NCBI GenBank assembly: GCA_012798755.1
Contig: JAAZMP010000098.1
Location: 12,082 to 76,081 of the forward strand
Direction of reading: 5' to 3'
Length of the DNA stretch: 64,000 bases
Source of the DNA: Bacillota bacterium
GTDB taxonomy: Bacteria; Bacillota; Dethiobacteria; DTU022; UBA8154
The position numbers and the translations under genes are program-made. Each line of letters opens with the position of its first letter. Position 1 is the first letter of the stretch. The notes below the pieces were generated by a model, which was not told where the DNA came from, did no database searches, and was given only the letters and a program-made list of their open reading frames with translations. Below are positions 20,435 to 55,766 of this stretch, piece after piece.

Positions 20435-22204
20435 TTACCGTCTGCTCATTAACAATTCAAAACGCGGAAACTTGGGGAAGTATTTTCTTAAAAAAGGCTG
20501 CCTGCTTTCTTTTGGTGAGTAGATCAATTGCAGGCGATTAACCCGTTTTCCTAACTGTTTCAAAAAGAGTGCGAAATTCTTGATAACCTTTTCCGATAGA
20601 TGTAACCCTTCTGCATTTACCACCAAGTGGAAGCAGCGCTGGGGTAATAAATTTTTCAAAACATGCCTGAGTTCCTGTAAAGCAAATCTGTTCAATAAAC
20701 CTCTTAAGCGCAGATAGAAAACACCATTATTTTCCGAAACATAAACTTTCAAAAGGTTTCCCGCCGCTGTTCCTAAGTTTCCTTGTTTCGACACTTGTAT
20801 TCGACGATACAAAAGTGGAACTGCTCTTGTACTATCGCTTTTGTTTTGCAATTGCGCTAAAATGTTTTGATACCAACGACTTTGTTTATCAAAGTTTTTC
20901 ACAAGCCACCAGCCCACGCAACGGTAAAGTGCTGAACCCCATCCTGTCAAAAAGAAGTTTTGAAAAGCATTTCTTATAGTATAAAAACGCCTAAATGCTT
21001 TAATGGTTTCCTTTTGTAATTCTTCGGCAGACATTTGGGCGGGTTGAAATACCACATGGTGCCCGTCATAAAGTTCCCAGTCTTTAGTTAAAAGCCGTCC
21101 TTCGGATTCCAGTTTTTCAAAAAGTGGTGTTCCGGGTAAGGGGGTCAGTATCATAAATTGTACACTATCTATGCGCATTTCTAAAGCAAAATCCACTGTT
21201 TCCTGTATGGTGTCAACCGTGTCCTGATCGCTTCCGAATACAAACATACCATGAATTCTAATGCCATATTCATGAAATTTCCGGATACATTTCCGGATAT
21301 CGTCCACGTTTTGCTTTTTGTTGTAAGATTGCAAAGTTAAAGGGTTAATAGATTCAAGCCCCACATAGGCAATATCTCCCCCGGTACGACGCATAAGTTC
21401 TAAAAATTCCTCGTCTTTGGCTGACTCTACACGCATCTGCGCACCCCAACTTTTAAGCTTAATATTTCTGTCAAGCATTTCCTGTAGCACTTGTTTGGTA
21501 TGTTTAGGATTAGCTGTAAAGTTGTCGTCGCAAAAAAATATGCTTTTCCCCTTGTAAAGGGAAAGCTCTTGCAATATTTTTTCTTTTGAACGACTGCGAT
21601 AACTACGGCCAAACATCGGCGCAACACTGCAAAAAATGCAGTTGTATGGGCAACCGCGTGAAGTCATTATCGGGATAGAGCGCATCTGGTTGTAGTGGTC
21701 TAAAAGGGTGAGATCCGGCATGGGAAGCTGTTCCACATCGATCCAATCTTCCGGAAGGGGGTTATGTACTGCCTCACCATTTTGCCAATAAGAAATTCCG
21801 GGAATATCTTCCGGCGATTTTCCTTCATCAAGTGAACGGATCAGAGAAAGAAAGGTAAGATCTGCTTCGCCTCTGACAACGTAATCAGCATACTGGAGCG
21901 CTTCTTCCGGCAAAAAGGTTGCATGGATGCCGCCGATTATTATAGGTACATTTTGCGAATGAAGATAACCGGCAATACGATAAGCTTCATGACTGGTTGA
22001 AGTTGTGGTTGAAATCCCTACAAGGTCGGCCTCCAAGAGCTTAGGCCAGGGCAACGCTTCACTTTGGTTTACATGGATGCTTACATCATACCCGGCCTCT
22101 TTTAATTGAGTTCCAAGCAGGGGTAGGCCCAGCCTTGGCATCCGGGTAGTACTGTAAACATGTCCTTTTTTTGTTTTGGGTTCTATTAAAATTATTTTTT
22201 TCAC
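20435..22204 (-). CDS. B12-binding-domain radical SAM enzyme with a C-terminal STAS-like extension
   Basis: The N-terminus is a cobalamin-binding Rossmann domain (LVGISTTTS..IIIGGIHATF). The radical SAM motif is CPYNCIFC. The last ~110 aa have a STAS-like beta-alpha pattern (VFYLRLRG..ALQELRHVLKNLL..HLVVNAEGL..IKNFALFLKQL..LQLIY). The GTG start follows CAGGAG. Confidence 0.85.
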   Translation of the reverse strand: MKKIILIEPKTKKGHVYSTTRMPRLGLPLLGTQLKEAGYDVSIHVNQSEALPWPKLLEADLVGISTTTSTSHEAYRIAGYLHSQNVPIIIGGIHATFLPEEALQYADYVVRGEADLTFLSLIRSLDEGKSPEDIPGISYWQNGEAVHNPLPEDWIDVEQLPMPDLTLLDHYNQMRSIPIMTSRGCPYNCIFCSVAPMFGRSYRSRSKEKILQELSLYKGKSIFFCDDNFTANPKHTKQVLQEMLDRNIKLKSWGAQMRVESAKDEEFLELMRRTGGDIAYVGLESINPLTLQSYNKKQNVDDIRKCIRKFHEYGIRIHGMFVFGSDQDTVDTIQETVDFALEMRIDSVQFMILTPLPGTPLFEKLESEGRLLTKDWELYDGHHVVFQPAQMSAEELQKETIKAFRRFYTIRNAFQNFFLTGWGSALYRCVGWWLVKNFDKQSRWYQNILAQLQNKSDSTRAVPLLYRRIQVSKQGNLGTAAGNLLKVYVSENNGVFYLRLRGLLNRFALQELRHVLKNLLPQRCFHLVVNAEGLHLSEKVIKNFALFLKQLGKRVNRLQLIYSPKESRQPFLRKYFPKFPRFELLMSRR

Positions 22205-33508: not shown

Positions 33509-36499
33509 TTATCCAGCCCTCCTTATATTGCATAAGAATGCTTTAAATTCCGGTATGGTCGTGTTGGCACATCCGATCGACGGCGTAATGTCGTTAGCGA
33601 TCGGACCTTTGGACATACAGGCATAACCCCAGTGCCAGAACATGCCGACTATTTCCTGTTCCTCACCGTCAACTTTTAATGGTTGTAAACGTGGTGTAAT
33701 GCAAGCCGGCGCTTCAAATTGGCCACGTTTGCTTTCCACTATAACCAGATCCCCGTTGTCTATGCCCAGTTTTGCCGCCAACGAAGGGCTAATCTCTACA
33801 AATAAATCCGGCATAGCCTCATTGAGCCAGGGCATATTACGAGTCATCATTCCGGTCTGATAGTGTTCGGTTAACCGGTAGGAAGTAGCAATGTAGGGGA
33901 ACTGCTGTCGATCACCACGCGAATCAGGGTACCACACGGTTATAGCAGGATTATATTGAATGGCAGACAATATGTTATCCACCGGGCTTTCCCAGGGTTC
34001 ATAATGTTCAGGGAAGGGGCCTTCAACCATACCCGGTGCAAAAAAACGTGCCTGTAACTCAGGGTTCATAATATAAGGTGCACGCGCTGTTTCTTCCGGC
34101 GGGATATCGGCATTAAAGTCCGGCACGTCGTTTCTTTTCCATTCTCCATTTTCATACCATAATACCGGTGCATCCGGATCCCAAGGACGACCCTGCGGAT
34201 CGGCAGAACAGCGGTTATAAATAATGCGCCTATTGACCGGCCAAGCAAAGGACCAATCCGGGTTGCTGCCGATACCTTCTGTTTCTTTGATGCGGCGTTT
34301 GCAATGCGGGTCTTCGTCATTATTGTAGTAACCGCTATAAATCCAGTTGCCGCAGGTTGTGGAGCCGTCATCGGCCAACACAGTGAAGTTAGTCAACAGT
34401 TTCCCGCTGTCAGATTCATAGCCGTTAAGCTCCTTGGCTACGGCAACAGCATCAATATCTTCACCGTAGTCCCAGTTTAGTTTTAAAATGGGATCGGCAA
34501 AAGGCCCGGGATCTGCCTCGTATGCTTTACGAATTTTTTTATAAAGCTTATCCACAATCCAAAGATCGGATTTGGCATCTCCCGGTGGTTCCTGTGCTTT
34601 ATAACGCCACTGGATCCAACGTCCGCTGTTGGCCACTGTACCTTCTCGTTCAATATGCAAAGCAGCCGGCAAAAGGAATACCTCAGTGGCAATTGTAGTG
34701 GGATCGACTCCGGGTTCCTTCCAGAAAGTGGCCGTTTCGTTTTCAAATATATCAACGACGACCTGCCAGTCCAGGCTGGCGCTATAGTTGCGCTTACCTG
34801 AGGCGGAGGGGCCACTGACTGCCGGGTTGTCCGCCCAACAGATCATGCCCTTTACTTCCCCTTCGCCCATGTACTTGTACATAGCGATATGTGAACGATC
34901 TTTATTATCCAACTTTGGGTAATAATCATAGCAAAAATCGTTCTCGCTGTTAGCATGTTTGCCCCAGAAAGCTTTAAGCATGCTGATGATAAATTTGGGC
35001 TTATTGCTCCAGTAGCTAGTCGCCGGTGTTTCCACCCTGTTGTAATCCGCAAGGGTAGGATGCAAGGCTGCCTTGGGGTGTCCCAGGTAACCGGGCATAT
35101 TGCCAAAAAGAATGGCCATATCGGTAGAACCCTGCACATTCTGTTGGCCACGCTGGGCATTTACGCCGCCTCCGGCAATACCCATGTTGCCCAGCAGTGT
35201 CTGAACCATAGCGACAGCGCGAACGTTTTCAGAACCATGGGTGAATTGGGTGATACCCATGGCATACATAATATTGCCGGCTTTTCCAGGTTTCCCCGTA
35301 CTGCAGTAAAGGTCAGCAACTGCCAGGAACTTATCTTTGGGGCAACCGGTAATCCGGCAGACTGTATCCACGTCATAACGGGAATAGTGTTTTTTCATTA
35401 GTTGAAAAACACAGTTGGGGTCTTGCAGTGTGTAATCCTTGATGATGTTTCCGTCTCCGTCTGTCTGGTAGGTCCAGGTAGATTTATCATAAGATACTTT
35501 ACCGTTATCATCTACTGCTGCCCCGGAAAAAAGTCCGTCGTTAAAGGAAAATTCAGGGTTTATCAGATAAGAAGCATTAGTGTAATTCACTACATACTCT
35601 TTCTGATAAAGATCGTTTTGAATGGCATAATTTATCAAGCCACCTAAAAAAGCAATATTTGTTCCCGGGCGTATGGGGGCATACAAATCAGCAATGGCAG
35701 CTGTCCGTGTAAAGCGTGGATCCACCACTATTAATTTAGCTCCCTTTTCCCGGGCTTTTTGAATCCACCGCATCGATATGGGATGATTTTCGGCAGTATT
35801 TCCGCCAAAATTCATAAGCACATCGGAATTCCGATAATCAATCCAGTGATTAGTCATCGCTCCTCGACCGAATGAGTTGGCCAGACCGGCCACAGTAGAA
35901 GAGTGTCAAAGACGAGCGCAGTGGTCAATGTTGATAATCCCCAGCGCTTTGGCCAGCTTGTGAAAAAGATAATTTTCTTCATTGTTGCACATAGCGCTGC
36001 CCAGCCAGGCCAGGGCTTTACTTCTATTTACAGTGACCCCATCGCTGTCGGTTTTTTCAAATGTCGTGTCTCTAGTTTTTTTAATCCGTTGGGCAATGGT
36101 TTCCAAAGCCCAATCCCAATCCTTAACCTCCCAATCAGTAGCATATGGTGCACGGTATAGAACCTGTGTCAGCCGCCTGGGGTTAATTTGCGGCACACCT
36201 TTCTCATCATAAACATAGGCCATGTTATAAAGGGCAGACCCTTTACTGCAAAGTGCCCCTTCGTTGATCGGATGATCAGGGTCACCCTCTGTGCCCACTA
36301 CTTTGCCATCTTCAACATAACAAATAATTCCACATCCTACACCACAAAACGGGCAGATCGTGGTAGATGACTCTGCGTATTGGATCCTCAGATCTTTAGA
36401 AACAACCTTCTCTTCAGGGGTAAGGCCCAGTTTCAAAGCTAAGCTTCCCGTAATTACTGCGCCGGATATCCATAAAAAGTTTCTTCGAGAAATCTTCAT
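33509..36499 (-). CDS. fdnG: Formate dehydrogenase catalytic (alpha) subunit, Tat-exported, selenocysteine at the in-frame TGA 35906-35908
   Basis: The track splits it into 35906..36499 and 33509..35893, but the two parts are in one frame: ...[31 protein letters not shown], the canonical Sec motif of FdnG/FdhF. It has the twin-arginine signal MKISRRNFLWISG, the 4Fe-4S motif CPFCGVGCG, and molybdopterin oxidoreductase domains. Confidence 0.9.
35878..35908 (-). other. UGA(Sec) codon plus SECIS-like hairpin of fdnG
   Basis: The mRNA reads UGA CAC UCU UCU ACU G-UGGCC-GGUCU-GGCCA. The GGUCU apical loop lies within the AGL codons, as in E. coli fdhF/fdnG SECIS elements. Confidence 0.6.
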
Positions 36500-42869: not shown

Positions 42870-43076
42870 CTACCAAAAACCGCGTCCCCGGTTATTCCGG
42901 CCTCGGCCATTTTTTGGACCTAGGCCAAAACGCGGGGCATTAAAGAATTGGTTGCCGGAAGGCCTGGGGTAAGAAGGCACGGCTCTCCTTCTCCGGGCAG
43001 GTAAAAAACAAAACCCGCGCCCCCTGCCGGTTATTGGGCCGGCACCCTGTGGGCCCGTTCCATCAAAGCCGGGCAT
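42870..43076 (-). CDS. DUF5320-like small Arg/Gly-rich protein
   Basis: It begins MPGFDGTGPQGAGPITGRGRGFC, the signature I recall for DUF5320, and has a C-terminal GRGRNNRGRGFW. The ATG at 43076 lies 8 nt after GAAGGAGG. Confidence 0.7.
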   Translation of the reverse strand: MPGFDGTGPQGAGPITGRGRGFCFLPARRRRAVPSYPRPSGNQFFNAPRFGLGPKNGRGRNNRGRGFW

Positions 43077-43102
43077 ATACATTGCCTCCTTCAAACTATA
43101 TT

Positions 43103-43528
43103 TTATTGAAATCTTCTTCCTCCGCCTCCGCCACGACCTCCACCTCTTCCTCCACCTCTACCCCTTCCCCCGCCAGTGCCGAAATTGGAAGGCACTGTGG
43201 AACCTGAGACTAGGTTTAATTTGCCTTGTTGATACTGTTCCAAAGCATCGGTTACTGTTCCGCTAATCCCGGTATAAATCTTGATGCCTCCGGTATTTAA
43301 TGCAGCATGAGCTTTCGGTCCGACGTTTCCGGTAAGCACTGCACCCACTCCTTTATCCATCAAAAATTGCGCAGTTTGAACGCCGGCACCCCCTGCTGCT
43401 TCTGCACTGGGGTTTGCAATCGCCTCATGTTGCCCTTCATCTACTAAAACAAAGTAGGTGCAGCGGCCAAGGCGTTGATCCACCAAACTGTCCATTTCCG
43501 GCCCTTGAGAAGTAATCGCAATCTTCAT
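43103..43528 (-). CDS. NifB/NifX-family (dinitrogenase Fe-Mo cofactor biosynthesis domain) protein with a C-terminal RGG tail
   Basis: It has MKIAITS..LGRCTYFVLVD...GVGAVLTGNVGPKA...GIKIY, typical of the PF02579-type fold. The tail is GTGGGRGRGGGRGGGRGGGGGRRFQ. Confidence 0.8.
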   Translation of the reverse strand: MKIAITSQGPEMDSLVDQRLGRCTYFVLVDEGQHEAIANPSAEAAGGAGVQTAQFLMDKGVGAVLTGNVGPKAHAALNTGGIKIYTGISGTVTDALEQYQQGKLNLVSGSTVPSNFGTGGGRGRGGGRGGGRGGGGGRRFQ

Positions 43529-43764
43529 ATCTTACACCTCCATCTGTAATGGTATTTTATTACACTTACCTCCATGTTACCGGTGTGTACTTGCTATCAT
43601 TCCCCTATTTTAATAACCTACCAAGTTTGTAAGGATTTACATCATTATACCAAAATTATAAGATAATTGAAAGCAGTATGGTTACGTTTGTAACTATTTT
43701 TTAAAAAAGCTTACTCCCACCCAAAAATAATTGCCCCTGAATAAAGAAAGAAAGAAAAACAAAT

Positions 43765-43795
43765 CATCGCTCACAGCGATGTCCTAAATACCTCA
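43765..43795 (-). other. Candidate UGA(Sec) plus SECIS-like hairpin (may double as terminator) at the end of the Grx-like gene
   Basis: The mRNA reads UGA GGU AUU UAG GA-CAUCGCU-GUG-AGCGAUG-AUUUGUUUUUCUUUC. This is a 7-bp perfect stem starting exactly 11 nt after the UGA, with a GUG apical loop and a U-rich tract after it. Confidence 0.5.
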
Positions 43796-44002
43796 ACCCT
43801 TGCCCTGGTAACCGATAGACTTGACTTTTCCGTCTTCAACAAGTACCGGTACAATTCCGGCGCCATATTTTACCTTGGCCGTCTCTAACGCAGAACTATC
43901 ATGGCTAACGTTGAATAACCGGTAAGAAAGACCTTCCTGTTCTAGTTGTTTGATCTGTTTTTGGCAATAAGCACACCCATCCTTAACATATAGTTCAATC
44001 AT
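43784..44002 (-). CDS. Glutaredoxin-like CxxC protein, probable selenoprotein ending ...GKG-U-G-I (the conventional call stops at TGA 43793)
   Basis: It has a Grx fold (MIELYVKDGCAYCQK...VPVLVEDGK). An AGGAGGT SD lies 6 nt before the ATG. The TGA at 43793-43795 is followed in frame by GGT ATT TAG and a SECIS-like hairpin. Sec usage in this organism is shown by fdnG. Confidence 0.6.
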
Positions 44003-44394
44003 TGTATTACCTCCTAACTAGTACAATATAGTTGTAATCAATCAGCAGCAAAACAGCTGCTAAAAACACCAAATTTAATAGTTAACATAATGTTGTTCAC
44101 AATGTTGTTAATTGGCCACCTTAACATCAAGCATAACGTGTGCCAGGGTGAAGATGGTCCTTTTTTTGTCTAATTGAATAGCTACTAATATCTTAACACA
44201 AGTAAATAAATTTAAGCAAAACCCAGAAAGGTATTTTTTTAAAAAAAGCTGTAAAAATAATAACATGCGATGAATAACGGCAATTGGAGAAATAATTTAA
44301 AATAGTTTTTTTAAAAAAGGACTTTTTGTTACAATAAACGAACTATACCTTTAAATGCTTTTCGCATTTATAAATAGAAAGGTGATGAATTATT

Positions 44395-45422: not shown

Positions 45423-45956
45423 TCATTCTTCCTTCCCTTCTTTAGAAATTTCTTCGAATTTTACATTATCTTGGTTTATCACTTCATAGTTTTCATATAA
45501 ATCAAACATTTTTATGATTACCGAAGGATAGGTTAGGACCTGGATGACTCCTTCATTTGGGGCAGGCTCTTTTTCCTCGACTGTTATAACTAAAGTATTG
45601 TCTTTACGGTCCAAAGAATTTACAGAAATAAAATATCCACCGGTAGGTTTTTCTCCTGCAAATATAAGTATATAAATATCTTCCTCGGCAGCAAATTCCC
45701 GGGGATCAAAAACAAAATAACCCTTTTGTTTTTTTAATTGTTCAGTTGCATTTACTACCGGCATTGGCAAAGCATCAGTTTCCTCTAAAATTTCATACCC
45801 TGAAACAACAGGTTCCTGAATTTGTTCCGGCTCGACTTGTTTTTCCGGAGCTTGTTTTTCTGATAAATCAGTATGAACAGGTTTCTTAAAAATTCCACAT
45901 CCTGTAAAAAACAGAACTGTTAAGATAACTAAAAAAATGACAGGCGTTTTTTTCAA
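45423..45956 (-). CDS. Lipoprotein with a PrcB-like C-terminal domain
   Basis: The TTG at 45956, 9 nt after AAAAGGGGGT, gives the classic lipoprotein signal MKKTPVIFLVILTVLFFTGC. The C-terminal region reads IFAGEKPTGGYFISVNS...VIQVLTYP. Confidence 0.65.
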   Translation of the reverse strand: MKKTPVIFLVILTVLFFTGCGIFKKPVHTDLSEKQAPEKQVEPEQIQEPVVSGYEILEETDALPMPVVNATEQLKKQKGYFVFDPREFAAEEDIYILIFAGEKPTGGYFISVNSLDRKDNTLVITVEEKEPAPNEGVIQVLTYPSVIIKMFDLYENYEVINQDNVKFEEISKEGKEE

Positions 45957-53732: not shown

Positions 53733-55766
53733 TTATTCCTCTTCCTCGCTTTTGCCAATGCTGTTTTCATTATTGAAAAGATCCCCAAACACATCCCCCA
53801 GTGTTACGTTCTGATTTTCGTTTTCTTTGGAGTAGGAGTGAGTGGTAAGATCTCTTGGTGCAGGTCGCGCCTTTTTAATGCTAAGGCTGATCCTTTTGCT
53901 GTCTACATTTATATCCAAAATTTTTGTTTCAACCACTTCGCCTTCCTGAACAATTTCCGAAGGATGCTTTACGTGAAAATCAGCCATCTGGGAAATATGC
54001 ACCAGCCCTTCCACGCCCGGAAAAAGTTCAACAAATGCACCAAAATTTACAATCCTTGTTACTTTCCCACTGATTATTTCCCCGACAGTGTATTCTTCAT
54101 CAACTTTGGTCCAGGGATCGGGTTGGGCTTGCCTAAGACTTAAACTTATTCTTTCCCGTTCCGGAATAATTTCCAGCACTTTTACTTCGATTTCTTCGCC
54201 AACTTTAAGAACATCTTGGGGATGTCCCACTCTTTGCCATGAGATTTCGGAAATGTGTACCAGGCCATCAATGCCACCAACATCAACAAAGGCACCAAAA
54301 TCCGTAAGTCTTTTTACAACCCCGGGGATTATTTCACCCTCTTTTAAATTTGCTAATGTTTCCTGTTTTTGTTTTTCTGCTTCCTCTTCCAGCATCTGTT
54401 TTCTGGAAAGAATGATTTTGTCGCGCTCTCTGTTAAGTTCAATGATTTTGAAAGAAAACTCCTGCCCCAAAAATTGTTGAAAATCAGGAATATAGCGAAC
54501 ATCTACAAGCGATCCAGGCATAAAGCCCTCAAGGCTGCTGCCCAATTCGATAATTATCCCGGCCGGGACTATTTCTTTTACGATTCCTTCCATGTTTTGG
54601 CCTGTTTCTGCAGCTTCCTCCAGCTCATTCCAGCGTCTTTCGCGTTCCAAGCGTTTTTGGGAGACAATAATCTTGTCTTCTTGGTCGTTAATTTTTAAAA
54701 TTAAAAGATCAACGCTGTCTTCAAGAGAAAATTTGTCTTTTAGTGTAGTATCCCCTTCCAAAAAGACTTCGGCACGAGGAAGTATCGCCTCAGTTTTATA
54801 GCCAAAATCAACCAATACTTGATCTTCTTCCACTAGAACAACCTTTCCCGTTATTATGTCACCAGGTCGGTAGTCCTTTTCCGGCACATCTTGATATGAA
54901 ACAACCTCCTCTGTTTTAGCTTCAAAATTATCATTTTCCATTTTAACCATAACCTCCTTTATCGTCCAAGGGGGAGTTGAAGCCCCCGCAGTCACCCCCA
55001 CGTTTTTGATCCCCACCAGCCACTTCGCTAAGATTTCCCGGGCTCCCGTAACCTGGTAGGTTTTTACTACCTCACGGCAGACCTGTGTTAACTTGTTGGT
55101 GTTAGAACTTTTTTCATCTCCCACAACCAACATTAGTTCTACCGTTGATGCCAATTTTACAGCTGAAGCCTGACGCAAAGCAGTTGCTTTGCAGATCGTG
55201 TGGTAAACTTCAAGATTAGGATTCTTTTTTTTCAGGATTTTTGCCATTTTTGAAAACCGATCTTCTCGCTGCGTGGTTTGCGAGATCAATAGAGCCTTGG
55301 GACCAAGCAGTGTTTCTTTTATGGTATCATAGTCTTCCGGATCAACAACTATGGCCTTTCCTTCAGTCCAGCCGGATACTGCTTGTACTTCTGGATGTTG
55401 TTTGTTTCCGCAGATAATAATGTCATAGCCATTTTTAAAAAATTCATGGGCGATTTTTTGCAAGCTTTTGACTTTTGGGCAGGTAGCATCAACAATTTTT
55501 AGACGTTTTTTTTCTCGCAAAATTTTTAAATGCCGGGGAGGAATGCCGTGTGCACGTATTATAACGGTACCGCTGTCCAATTTCTGAAGATCTTCAACAA
55601 TCTTTACTCCTTTTGAATGTAAAAAATTAGTGACTTCGTCATTGTGTACCAGCGGTCCTAAAGTAAAAACTTTTTCCCCCTTGTCAACCTCCTGCAATGT
55701 AAGCTTAAGTGCTCTTTTAACCCCGCTGCAAAAACCCGCGTGTTCAGCCAATAATACCCGCAACAA
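53733..55766 (-). CDS. ispH: Bifunctional IspH (HMBPP reductase) / ribosomal protein S1-like fusion
   Basis: The N-terminal ~280 aa are IspH/LytB (AGFCSGVKRA, ATCPKV, three Cys ligands). The C-terminal region has four S1 OB-fold repeats (e.g. GVVKRLTDFGAFVDVGGIDGLVHISE). The start is TTG. Confidence 0.9.
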   Translation of the reverse strand: MLRVLLAEHAGFCSGVKRALKLTLQEVDKGEKVFTLGPLVHNDEVTNFLHSKGVKIVEDLQKLDSGTVIIRAHGIPPRHLKILREKKRLKIVDATCPKVKSLQKIAHEFFKNGYDIIICGNKQHPEVQAVSGWTEGKAIVVDPEDYDTIKETLLGPKALLISQTTQREDRFSKMAKILKKKNPNLEVYHTICKATALRQASAVKLASTVELMLVVGDEKSSNTNKLTQVCREVVKTYQVTGAREILAKWLVGIKNVGVTAGASTPPWTIKEVMVKMENDNFEAKTEEVVSYQDVPEKDYRPGDIITGKVVLVEEDQVLVDFGYKTEAILPRAEVFLEGDTTLKDKFSLEDSVDLLILKINDQEDKIIVSQKRLERERRWNELEEAAETGQNMEGIVKEIVPAGIIIELGSSLEGFMPGSLVDVRYIPDFQQFLGQEFSFKIIELNRERDKIILSRKQMLEEEAEKQKQETLANLKEGEIIPGVVKRLTDFGAFVDVGGIDGLVHISEISWQRVGHPQDVLKVGEEIEVKVLEIIPERERISLSLRQAQPDPWTKVDEEYTVGEIISGKVTRIVNFGAFVELFPGVEGLVHISQMADFHVKHPSEIVQEGEVVETKILDINVDSKRISLSIKKARPAPRDLTTHSYSKENENQNVTLGDVFGDLFNNENSIGKSEEEE

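Follow-up and report, generated by a model that had tools for sequence, protein, structure and literature searches.

The glutaredoxin-like gene on the minus strand at positions 43784–44002 of the window, by which we mean the whole 64-kb stretch of DNA that was analysed, very probably reads its in-frame TGA as selenocysteine (Sec) and belongs to the Uxx-star kind of protein. From the sequence comparisons presented here, we place the probability of this reading at roughly 0.9. Gene callers almost certainly truncate the gene: the annotated end is the TGA, and the predicted true end lies two codons further on.

The start codon ATG was located at 44002–44000 (-), and the ORF as annotated consists of 69 codons ending in ...GYQGKG according to the sequence and the ORF list. 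A CAYC redox motif is encoded by codons 10–13 (43964–43975, -). The original prediction had described a layout of TGA, GGT, ATT and TAG behind this 69-codon ORF, and the sequence agreed with it base for base. The UGA, the putative Sec codon 70, occupies 43793–43795 (-) and is followed by codons for Gly and Ile at 43787–43792 (-; GGT at 43792–43790 and ATT at 43789–43787) and by TAG, the predicted true stop codon, at 43784–43786 (-). The revised coding sequence, 43784–44002 (-), therefore comprises 72 codons plus TAG, and its predicted product, MIELYVKDGCAYCQ...SIGYQGKG-U-G-I, is a selenoprotein with the glutaredoxin fold. A strong Shine-Dalgarno sequence, AGGAGG, was read directly off the sequence at 44010–44015 (-) with a 7-nt spacer to the ATG, and a promoter-like site, TTAACA-16-TATGTT, was found further upstream at 44084–44111 (-) as a consensus match only. 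A tandem 12-nt direct repeat at 44086–44109 (CATAATGTTGTT / CACAATGTTGTT on the plus strand) overlaps the promoter-like site and may be an operator.

To the database entries, the gene ends at the TGA. A protein search of a 5.8-billion-protein collection returned 21 relatives, namely 20 close ones and one of Cys type (P0021). All 20 close relatives stop at the glycine that precedes the TGA (19 are full-length, and P0019 runs off the end of its contig), and NCBI names one of them "glutaredoxin family protein". These entries favor the explanation that the TGA is an ordinary stop, that the protein has 69 residues as annotated, and that the hairpin and U tract behind it form a Rho-independent terminator. 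The complete CxxC fold of the 69-residue form is also consistent with this explanation.

The related loci argue against it. A one-genome-per-species scan yielded 251 related stretches, nearly all from metagenome-assembled genomes, and the best 80 of these 251 were read. The TGA-type loci among the best 80 were mostly labelled Bacillota, Syntrophomonadaceae or Dethiobacteria, and their proteins were approximately 45–80% identical to that of the query; the query gene and 58 such loci make up the 59 TGA-type sequences counted here (Sec forms, L001–L055, L057, L060, L068, and L078; Cys forms, within L056–L080). TGA stands straight after glycine in 59/59 of these sequences, whereas it accounts for only about 25% of the long-frame stops in the window. 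The two codons that would be untranslated after an ordinary stop are conserved as amino acids. The first position holds G (34 sequences), K (17), N (3), or one of D, E, A, and R (the other five), and the second holds I (52), V (3), L (3), or F (1). A stop codon always comes next, and its type varies freely (TAA, 32; TGA, 21; TAG, 6). The U-x-x-stop layout of the query, which is characteristic of Uxx-star proteins, is thereby found in all 59 TGA-type sequences.

In the 21 Cys-type loci among the best 80 of 251, the TGA column holds TGC or TGT without exception (...GWQGRG-C...), and the tail beyond it is longer and variable. These loci are more distant from the query and are mostly labelled Acidobacteriota or Rhodothermales. 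P0021 from the protein search has the same Cys pattern at the U column. The pairing of Sec with Cys that is expected of bacterial selenoproteins was therefore found in 21 loci and P0021, and an invariant TGA against Cys in distant relatives is, at the level of sequence, the classic Sec/Cys signature. The original prediction of read-through at the TGA was borne out by these homologues in that the pattern of an ordinary stop was not seen among them and Cys orthologues were found at the U position.

The sequence behind the gene was then considered for a selenocysteine insertion sequence (SECIS). After TAG and the dinucleotide GA, the minus strand reads CATCGCT-GTG-AGCGATG from 43781 to 43765. The corresponding RNA hairpin, CAUCGCU-GUG-AGCGAUG (43765–43781, -), has a 7-bp stem with four G-C pairs and a GUG loop, and lies entirely past the stop codon. 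The gap between the TGA and the first stem base is exactly 11 nt (GGTATTTAGGA), and G and U occupy loop positions 22 and 23 when the U of UGA is counted as 1; a 7-bp hairpin beginning 11 nt past the TGA is thus present as had been claimed. The sequence 3′ of the stem is ATTTGTTTTT, and the U-rich tract AUUUGUUUUU at 43755–43764 (-) gives the hairpin the look of an intrinsic terminator in the terminator scan. The locus accordingly contains the terminator pattern of a G+C-rich stem-loop followed by a U tract, as a pattern match only, and this feature of the locus suits an ordinary stop.

The hairpin by itself is thermodynamically ordinary, with a z-score of −0.61 for the 66-nt fold. The terminator scan of the 1.6-kb region found 1 site vs 1.3 expected in shuffles, and a permissive Rfam search of 43700–43850 gave chance-level matches only, all with E > 3 and none to a SECIS family. 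We also scanned the six frames of the 64-kb window for open frames that are 50 codons or longer and end in TGA (n = 116), and asked which of them are followed by a hairpin with a stem of 5 bp or more, including at least 3 G-C pairs, starting 8–20 nt downstream and having a G within the first two loop bases. Only 2 of the 116 frames passed, one at the Sec site of fdnG and the other at the glutaredoxin-like gene. The hairpin alone is within chance, and its combination with the TGA context is beyond chance.

Conservation of the hairpin was analyzed with an alignment of 58 distinct 48-nt stretches, each starting at the TGA. RNAalifold predicted a 6-bp helix with double compensatory changes in 6/6 pairs. 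For the 7-pair version, 87.9% of the cells were paired compared to 70.8% in shuffles, and the covariation score was 0.561 compared to 0.222 in shuffles, none of which (0/500) reached 0.561. In slid controls, in which the partner was moved by 1–3 columns, the covariation was 0.09–0.21. The covariance check on the hairpin that was originally proposed thus came out in its favor, with compensatory changes in every pair and values higher than in the shuffles and in the slid controls alike. Most loops read C-G-U-G-N, and the first G in them never varies across the alignment. Counted from the U of UGA, this G usually sits at a distance of 22–28 nt, most commonly 25, and the spacing from UGA to the stem in the relatives is mostly 9–17 nt. 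A covarying hairpin whose apical loop keeps a conserved G, as expected of a selenoprotein gene, is therefore found here. Bacterial SECIS elements have been generalised in structural work on SelB as having a 6–8 bp stem and a conserved loop G approximately 20 nt after the UGA (PMC4605307), and the hairpin of the glutaredoxin-like gene fits this description.

A strict hairpin pattern was found in 50/59 TGA-type sequences vs 1/21 Cys loci, which indicates that the structure travels with the TGA. A U-rich tail follows the hairpin in only 3/59 TGA-type sequences, suggesting that the hairpin is conserved as a SECIS and not as a terminator. The proposal that one structure serves as both SECIS and terminator consequently stood in part: it fits the local sequence according to the terminator scan, but it does not hold as a feature of the family. 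The invariance of the TGA, the conservation of the next two codons, and the conservation of the hairpin show that all three are under selection. Because the TGA is invariant, the two following codons are conserved, distant relatives carry Cys in place of the TGA, and the stem covaries around an invariant loop G while the U-rich tail is rare, we consider it very improbable that the TGA is an ordinary stop, and translation through it as Sec remains the preferred reading.

Judging from the fdnG Sec codon and the SECIS that accompanies it, the organism decodes UGA as Sec. The CARL-U-HS site that had been noted in fdnG was verified, with its TGA at 35908–35906 (-), and this Sec codon (35906–35908, -; HCARL-U-HSS, appearing as HCARL*HSSTVAG) serves as a positive control within the window. 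The apical hairpin of its SECIS, UGGCCG-GUC-UGGCCA, lies at 35878–35892 (-) and has G23 and U24 in the loop. The geometries of the two hairpins in this genome are close, being G22U23 for the query and G23U24 for fdnG. ORF callers break the FdnG-like formate dehydrogenase alpha subunit itself (33509–36499, -) at this canonical Sec codon, leaving parts of 197 and 794 aa.

These data also bear on the possibility that the UGA is read by a route other than Sec, either by near-cognate Trp or Cys insertion or as a reassigned codon, to give a 72-residue protein free of selenium. The inserted amino acid is not decidable from sequence alone, and the Cys-type relatives indicate that sulfur can serve at the U position. 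However, UGA is a genuine stop two codons on in 21 relatives and also ends many genes in the window, so the codon is not reassigned. The conserved hairpin shares its geometry and loop G-U with the SECIS of fdnG in this genome, and a Cys codon would suffice if Cys were to be inserted, yet 0/59 sequences have one. We therefore regard a selenium-free read-through product as scarcely plausible and retain Sec as the residue most probably inserted at codon 70.

Components of the Sec machinery were sought within the window. ARAGORN found no tRNA-Sec in the 64 kb, an Rfam scan of the whole window at gathering thresholds found tRNAs only, and NCBIfam scans of 20 window ORFs found no SelA, SelB, or SelD; these scans identified MutS, MutL, MiaB, Der, SpoIVA, GpsA, RtcB, AhcY, and IspH-S1 among others. 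The last of these, at 53733–55766 (-), is a fusion of IspH (4-hydroxy-3-methylbut-2-enyl diphosphate reductase) and ribosomal protein S1, and scored 752 bits to the bifunctional model NF000907. When the window was searched for further hidden selenoproteins as in-frame ORF pairs joined by a TGA, only fdnG was credible. The TGA-joined pairs at 45425 and 49540 were rejected as adjacent separate genes. A B12-binding radical SAM protein at 20435–22204 (-) matched the "CUAEP/CCAEP-tail radical SAM (seleno)protein" model weakly, with 64 bits against a cutoff of 500; it is not a member, and it showed no extension through an in-frame TGA.

The protein encoded by 43784–44002 has the small glutaredoxin/thioredoxin fold and the N-terminal CxxC that are characteristic of Uxx-star proteins. 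It matched Pfam Glutaredoxin (PF00462) with 36.8 bits (cutoff, 22.9), and the closest solved sequences were Grx3 and NrdH. The "Uxx-star" label that the original prediction had named proved to be real: it belongs to NCBIfam NF041212, "Uxx-star family glutaredoxin-like (seleno)protein", which was the best NCBIfam match and aligned end to end over positions 1–70 of 70. The NF041212 score rose from 57.3 bits for the truncated protein to 62.8 bits when C-G-I was added, Cys standing in for Sec, and is then 3 bits under the cutoff of 66 bits. Relatives at 57–71% identity scored 67.3, 72.1, and 72.3 bits, other relatives scored 59.3, 64.7, 81.8, and 105.4 bits, and two Cys-type proteins scored 82.2 and 67.7 bits. 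Since the relatives score on both sides of 66 bits, the clade straddles the NF041212 cutoff, and it should be useful when the Uxx-star model is tuned. The scores against UXX-star families 1, 2, and 3 (NF041114, NF041211, and NF047338) were 40.7, 41.1, and 43.2 bits vs cutoffs of 72, 100, and 97, respectively, and being far under these cutoffs, the query falls in none of the named sub-families.

In a review of 2026, UXX-star selenoproteins appear with the motif GxGU (PMC13188914), and a passage of this review credits UXX-star to Haft & Tolstoy 2025 (mSystems). The family and its U-x-x-stop architecture are thus already curated and published, and the query is a further Uxx-star member that adds no new kind of system. 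Its value lies partly in the correction of a systematic annotation error, in which close relatives end before the TGA. As all of these relatives end at the pre-TGA glycine, the selenoproteome of these anaerobic digester bacteria would be under-counted.

The following course of translation can be proposed. On arrival of the ribosome at UGA 70, SelB with Sec-tRNASec would be held by the hairpin 11 nt downstream; Sec would be inserted, GGU and AUU would be read, and UAG would terminate translation. Because Sec is only three residues from the end, the SECIS would be wholly in the 3′ untranslated region (3′-UTR). In this genome, the hairpin and U tract would probably also end the transcript, with the SECIS staying intact on the mRNA. 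When selenium is short, translation may stop at the UGA and give a 69-residue protein that has an intact fold and lacks only the tail, and the ratio of the 72- to the 69-residue form could track the selenium supply.

In the protein, the glycine-rich tail may swing Sec back to the CxxC center, where a selenenylsulfide would form and exchange with the dithiol, and the tail would then be a mobile redox or ligand-binding arm. We give the redox-arm mechanism about even chances. The relatives provide a clue in this respect. Among the best 80 of 251 loci, CxxC is present in 58/58 Sec-type proteins, whereas CxxT together with a tail Cys is present in 21/21 Cys-type relatives. In the Cys type, the second active-site Cys is gone, which leaves the tail Cys as the only available partner for the first Cys; the tail residue can accordingly be argued to work directly with Cys10. 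The complementary pattern of CxxC with U and CxxT with C points to a possible pairing between the first active-site Cys and the residue in the tail, and this split is a testable clue to the role of the C-terminal Sec.

The main alternative to the redox arm accepts a real Uxx-star selenoprotein and assigns Sec and the two Cys residues a different task, the binding of a soft metal or metalloid or of selenium/sulfur species. Gene neighborhoods lend it some support. In the clade with GFGGGG-U-[GK]-I tails (within loci L019–L068), a cation-diffusion-facilitator (CDF) transporter gene is convergent and lies approximately 0.3 kb downstream in 29 loci. In the window, the next gene downstream (43103–43528, -) encodes a 141-aa protein similar to the NifX-like C-terminal domain of MrpORP, with a Gly/Arg-rich GGRGRGGGRGGGRGGGGGRR tail, and the one after it (42870–43094, -) encodes a small Gly/Arg-rich DUF5320 protein. 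However, the neighbors differ between clades and may only mirror shared genome ancestry. The query gene appears to be monocistronic: a gap of 255 nt that holds a terminator-like hairpin separates its stop codon from the next gene. The CxxC/CxxT complementarity is explained no less well by thiol-selenol exchange. Binding of a metal or metalloid is regarded as rather unlikely, and the redox arm is favored.

The other neighbors were compared among the loci. In L004 and L013, the selenoprotein gene is likewise followed by the 141-aa NifX-like gene, and these are the only loci compared that share neighbors with the window. Upstream of the query gene are a divergent 120-residue ORF and then DUF2062, PrcB-C-like, and SpoIVA genes. 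In the GFGGGG-U-[GK]-I clade, NadE-like (33 loci) and MnmG (27 loci) genes lie 2–4 kb upstream, and genes for an MttB-like methyltransferase and a corrinoid protein lie downstream in 17 loci; these arrangements probably represent conserved synteny rather than an operon. No functional partner was found from the gene neighborhoods, and since they are not conserved between clades, no function was assigned from context. An identical copy of the gene with the same neighbors was observed on a biogas-fermenter metagenome contig. Two TGA-type loci, L004 and L015, are in bins labelled Desulfovibrionaceae or Desulfovibrio, and their proteins are 57–71% identical to the Bacillota versions; L004 of this pair has the downstream gene of the window too. 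These labels could reflect mis-binning or horizontal transfer.

The observations can be joined into a broader reading, which we put forward tentatively and consider doubtful as a whole. The relatives labelled Dethiobacteria, Bacillota, or Syntrophomonadaceae would form a fourth Uxx-star sub-family outside the current models, in which the tail Sec partners the first active-site Cys; at the present locus, one 3′-UTR hairpin would act as both SECIS and terminator, and the selenium supply would pick the 72- or the 69-residue form. The tails in this proposed sub-family are G-x-G-U-[GK]-I and GGGG-U-[GK]-I, and the sequences come mostly from metagenome-assembled genomes.

Compared with known systems, the query is most similar to the Uxx-star family NF041212, with which it shares a glutaredoxin fold of approximately 70 residues, a CxxC at the N-terminal end, a Sec or Cys that precedes the stop by exactly three residues, and a glycine-rich lead-in, which is G-x-G-U in the query. 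It differs from most of its relatives in having CAYC where they have CP[YH]C.

Mammalian thioredoxin reductase has a C-terminal Gly-Cys-Sec-Gly tail, which has been proposed to shuttle redox equivalents to and from a CxxC-type center. Similar to the query, it has Sec near the C-terminus on a flexible, glycine-flanked tail, and a truncated product is possible at the UGA. In contrast, its fold and size are unrelated, the tail of the query is G-U-G-I and not G-C-U-G, with no Cys beside Sec, and the partner thiol in the query would be provided by the CxxC of the same small domain. The comparison with the GCUG tail is accordingly meant as an analogy only.

The glutaredoxin selenoprotein with a UxxC active site (PF00462; PMC13188914) is likewise a bacterial selenoprotein with the Pfam Glutaredoxin domain. 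There, Sec replaces the first active-site Cys, whereas the query keeps CxxC and carries its putative Sec in the C-terminal tail. With respect to the RNA element, the query resembles the E. coli fdhF-type SECIS in having a stem of 6–7 bp from 11 nt past the UGA and an apical-loop G-U at +22/+23. The bulged U of the fdhF type is not evident in the query hairpin, and unlike the fdhF type, the query element would be wholly in the 3′-UTR, with only two codons beyond Sec. The locus would thus represent a clean natural case of a bacterial SECIS wholly within a 3′-UTR.
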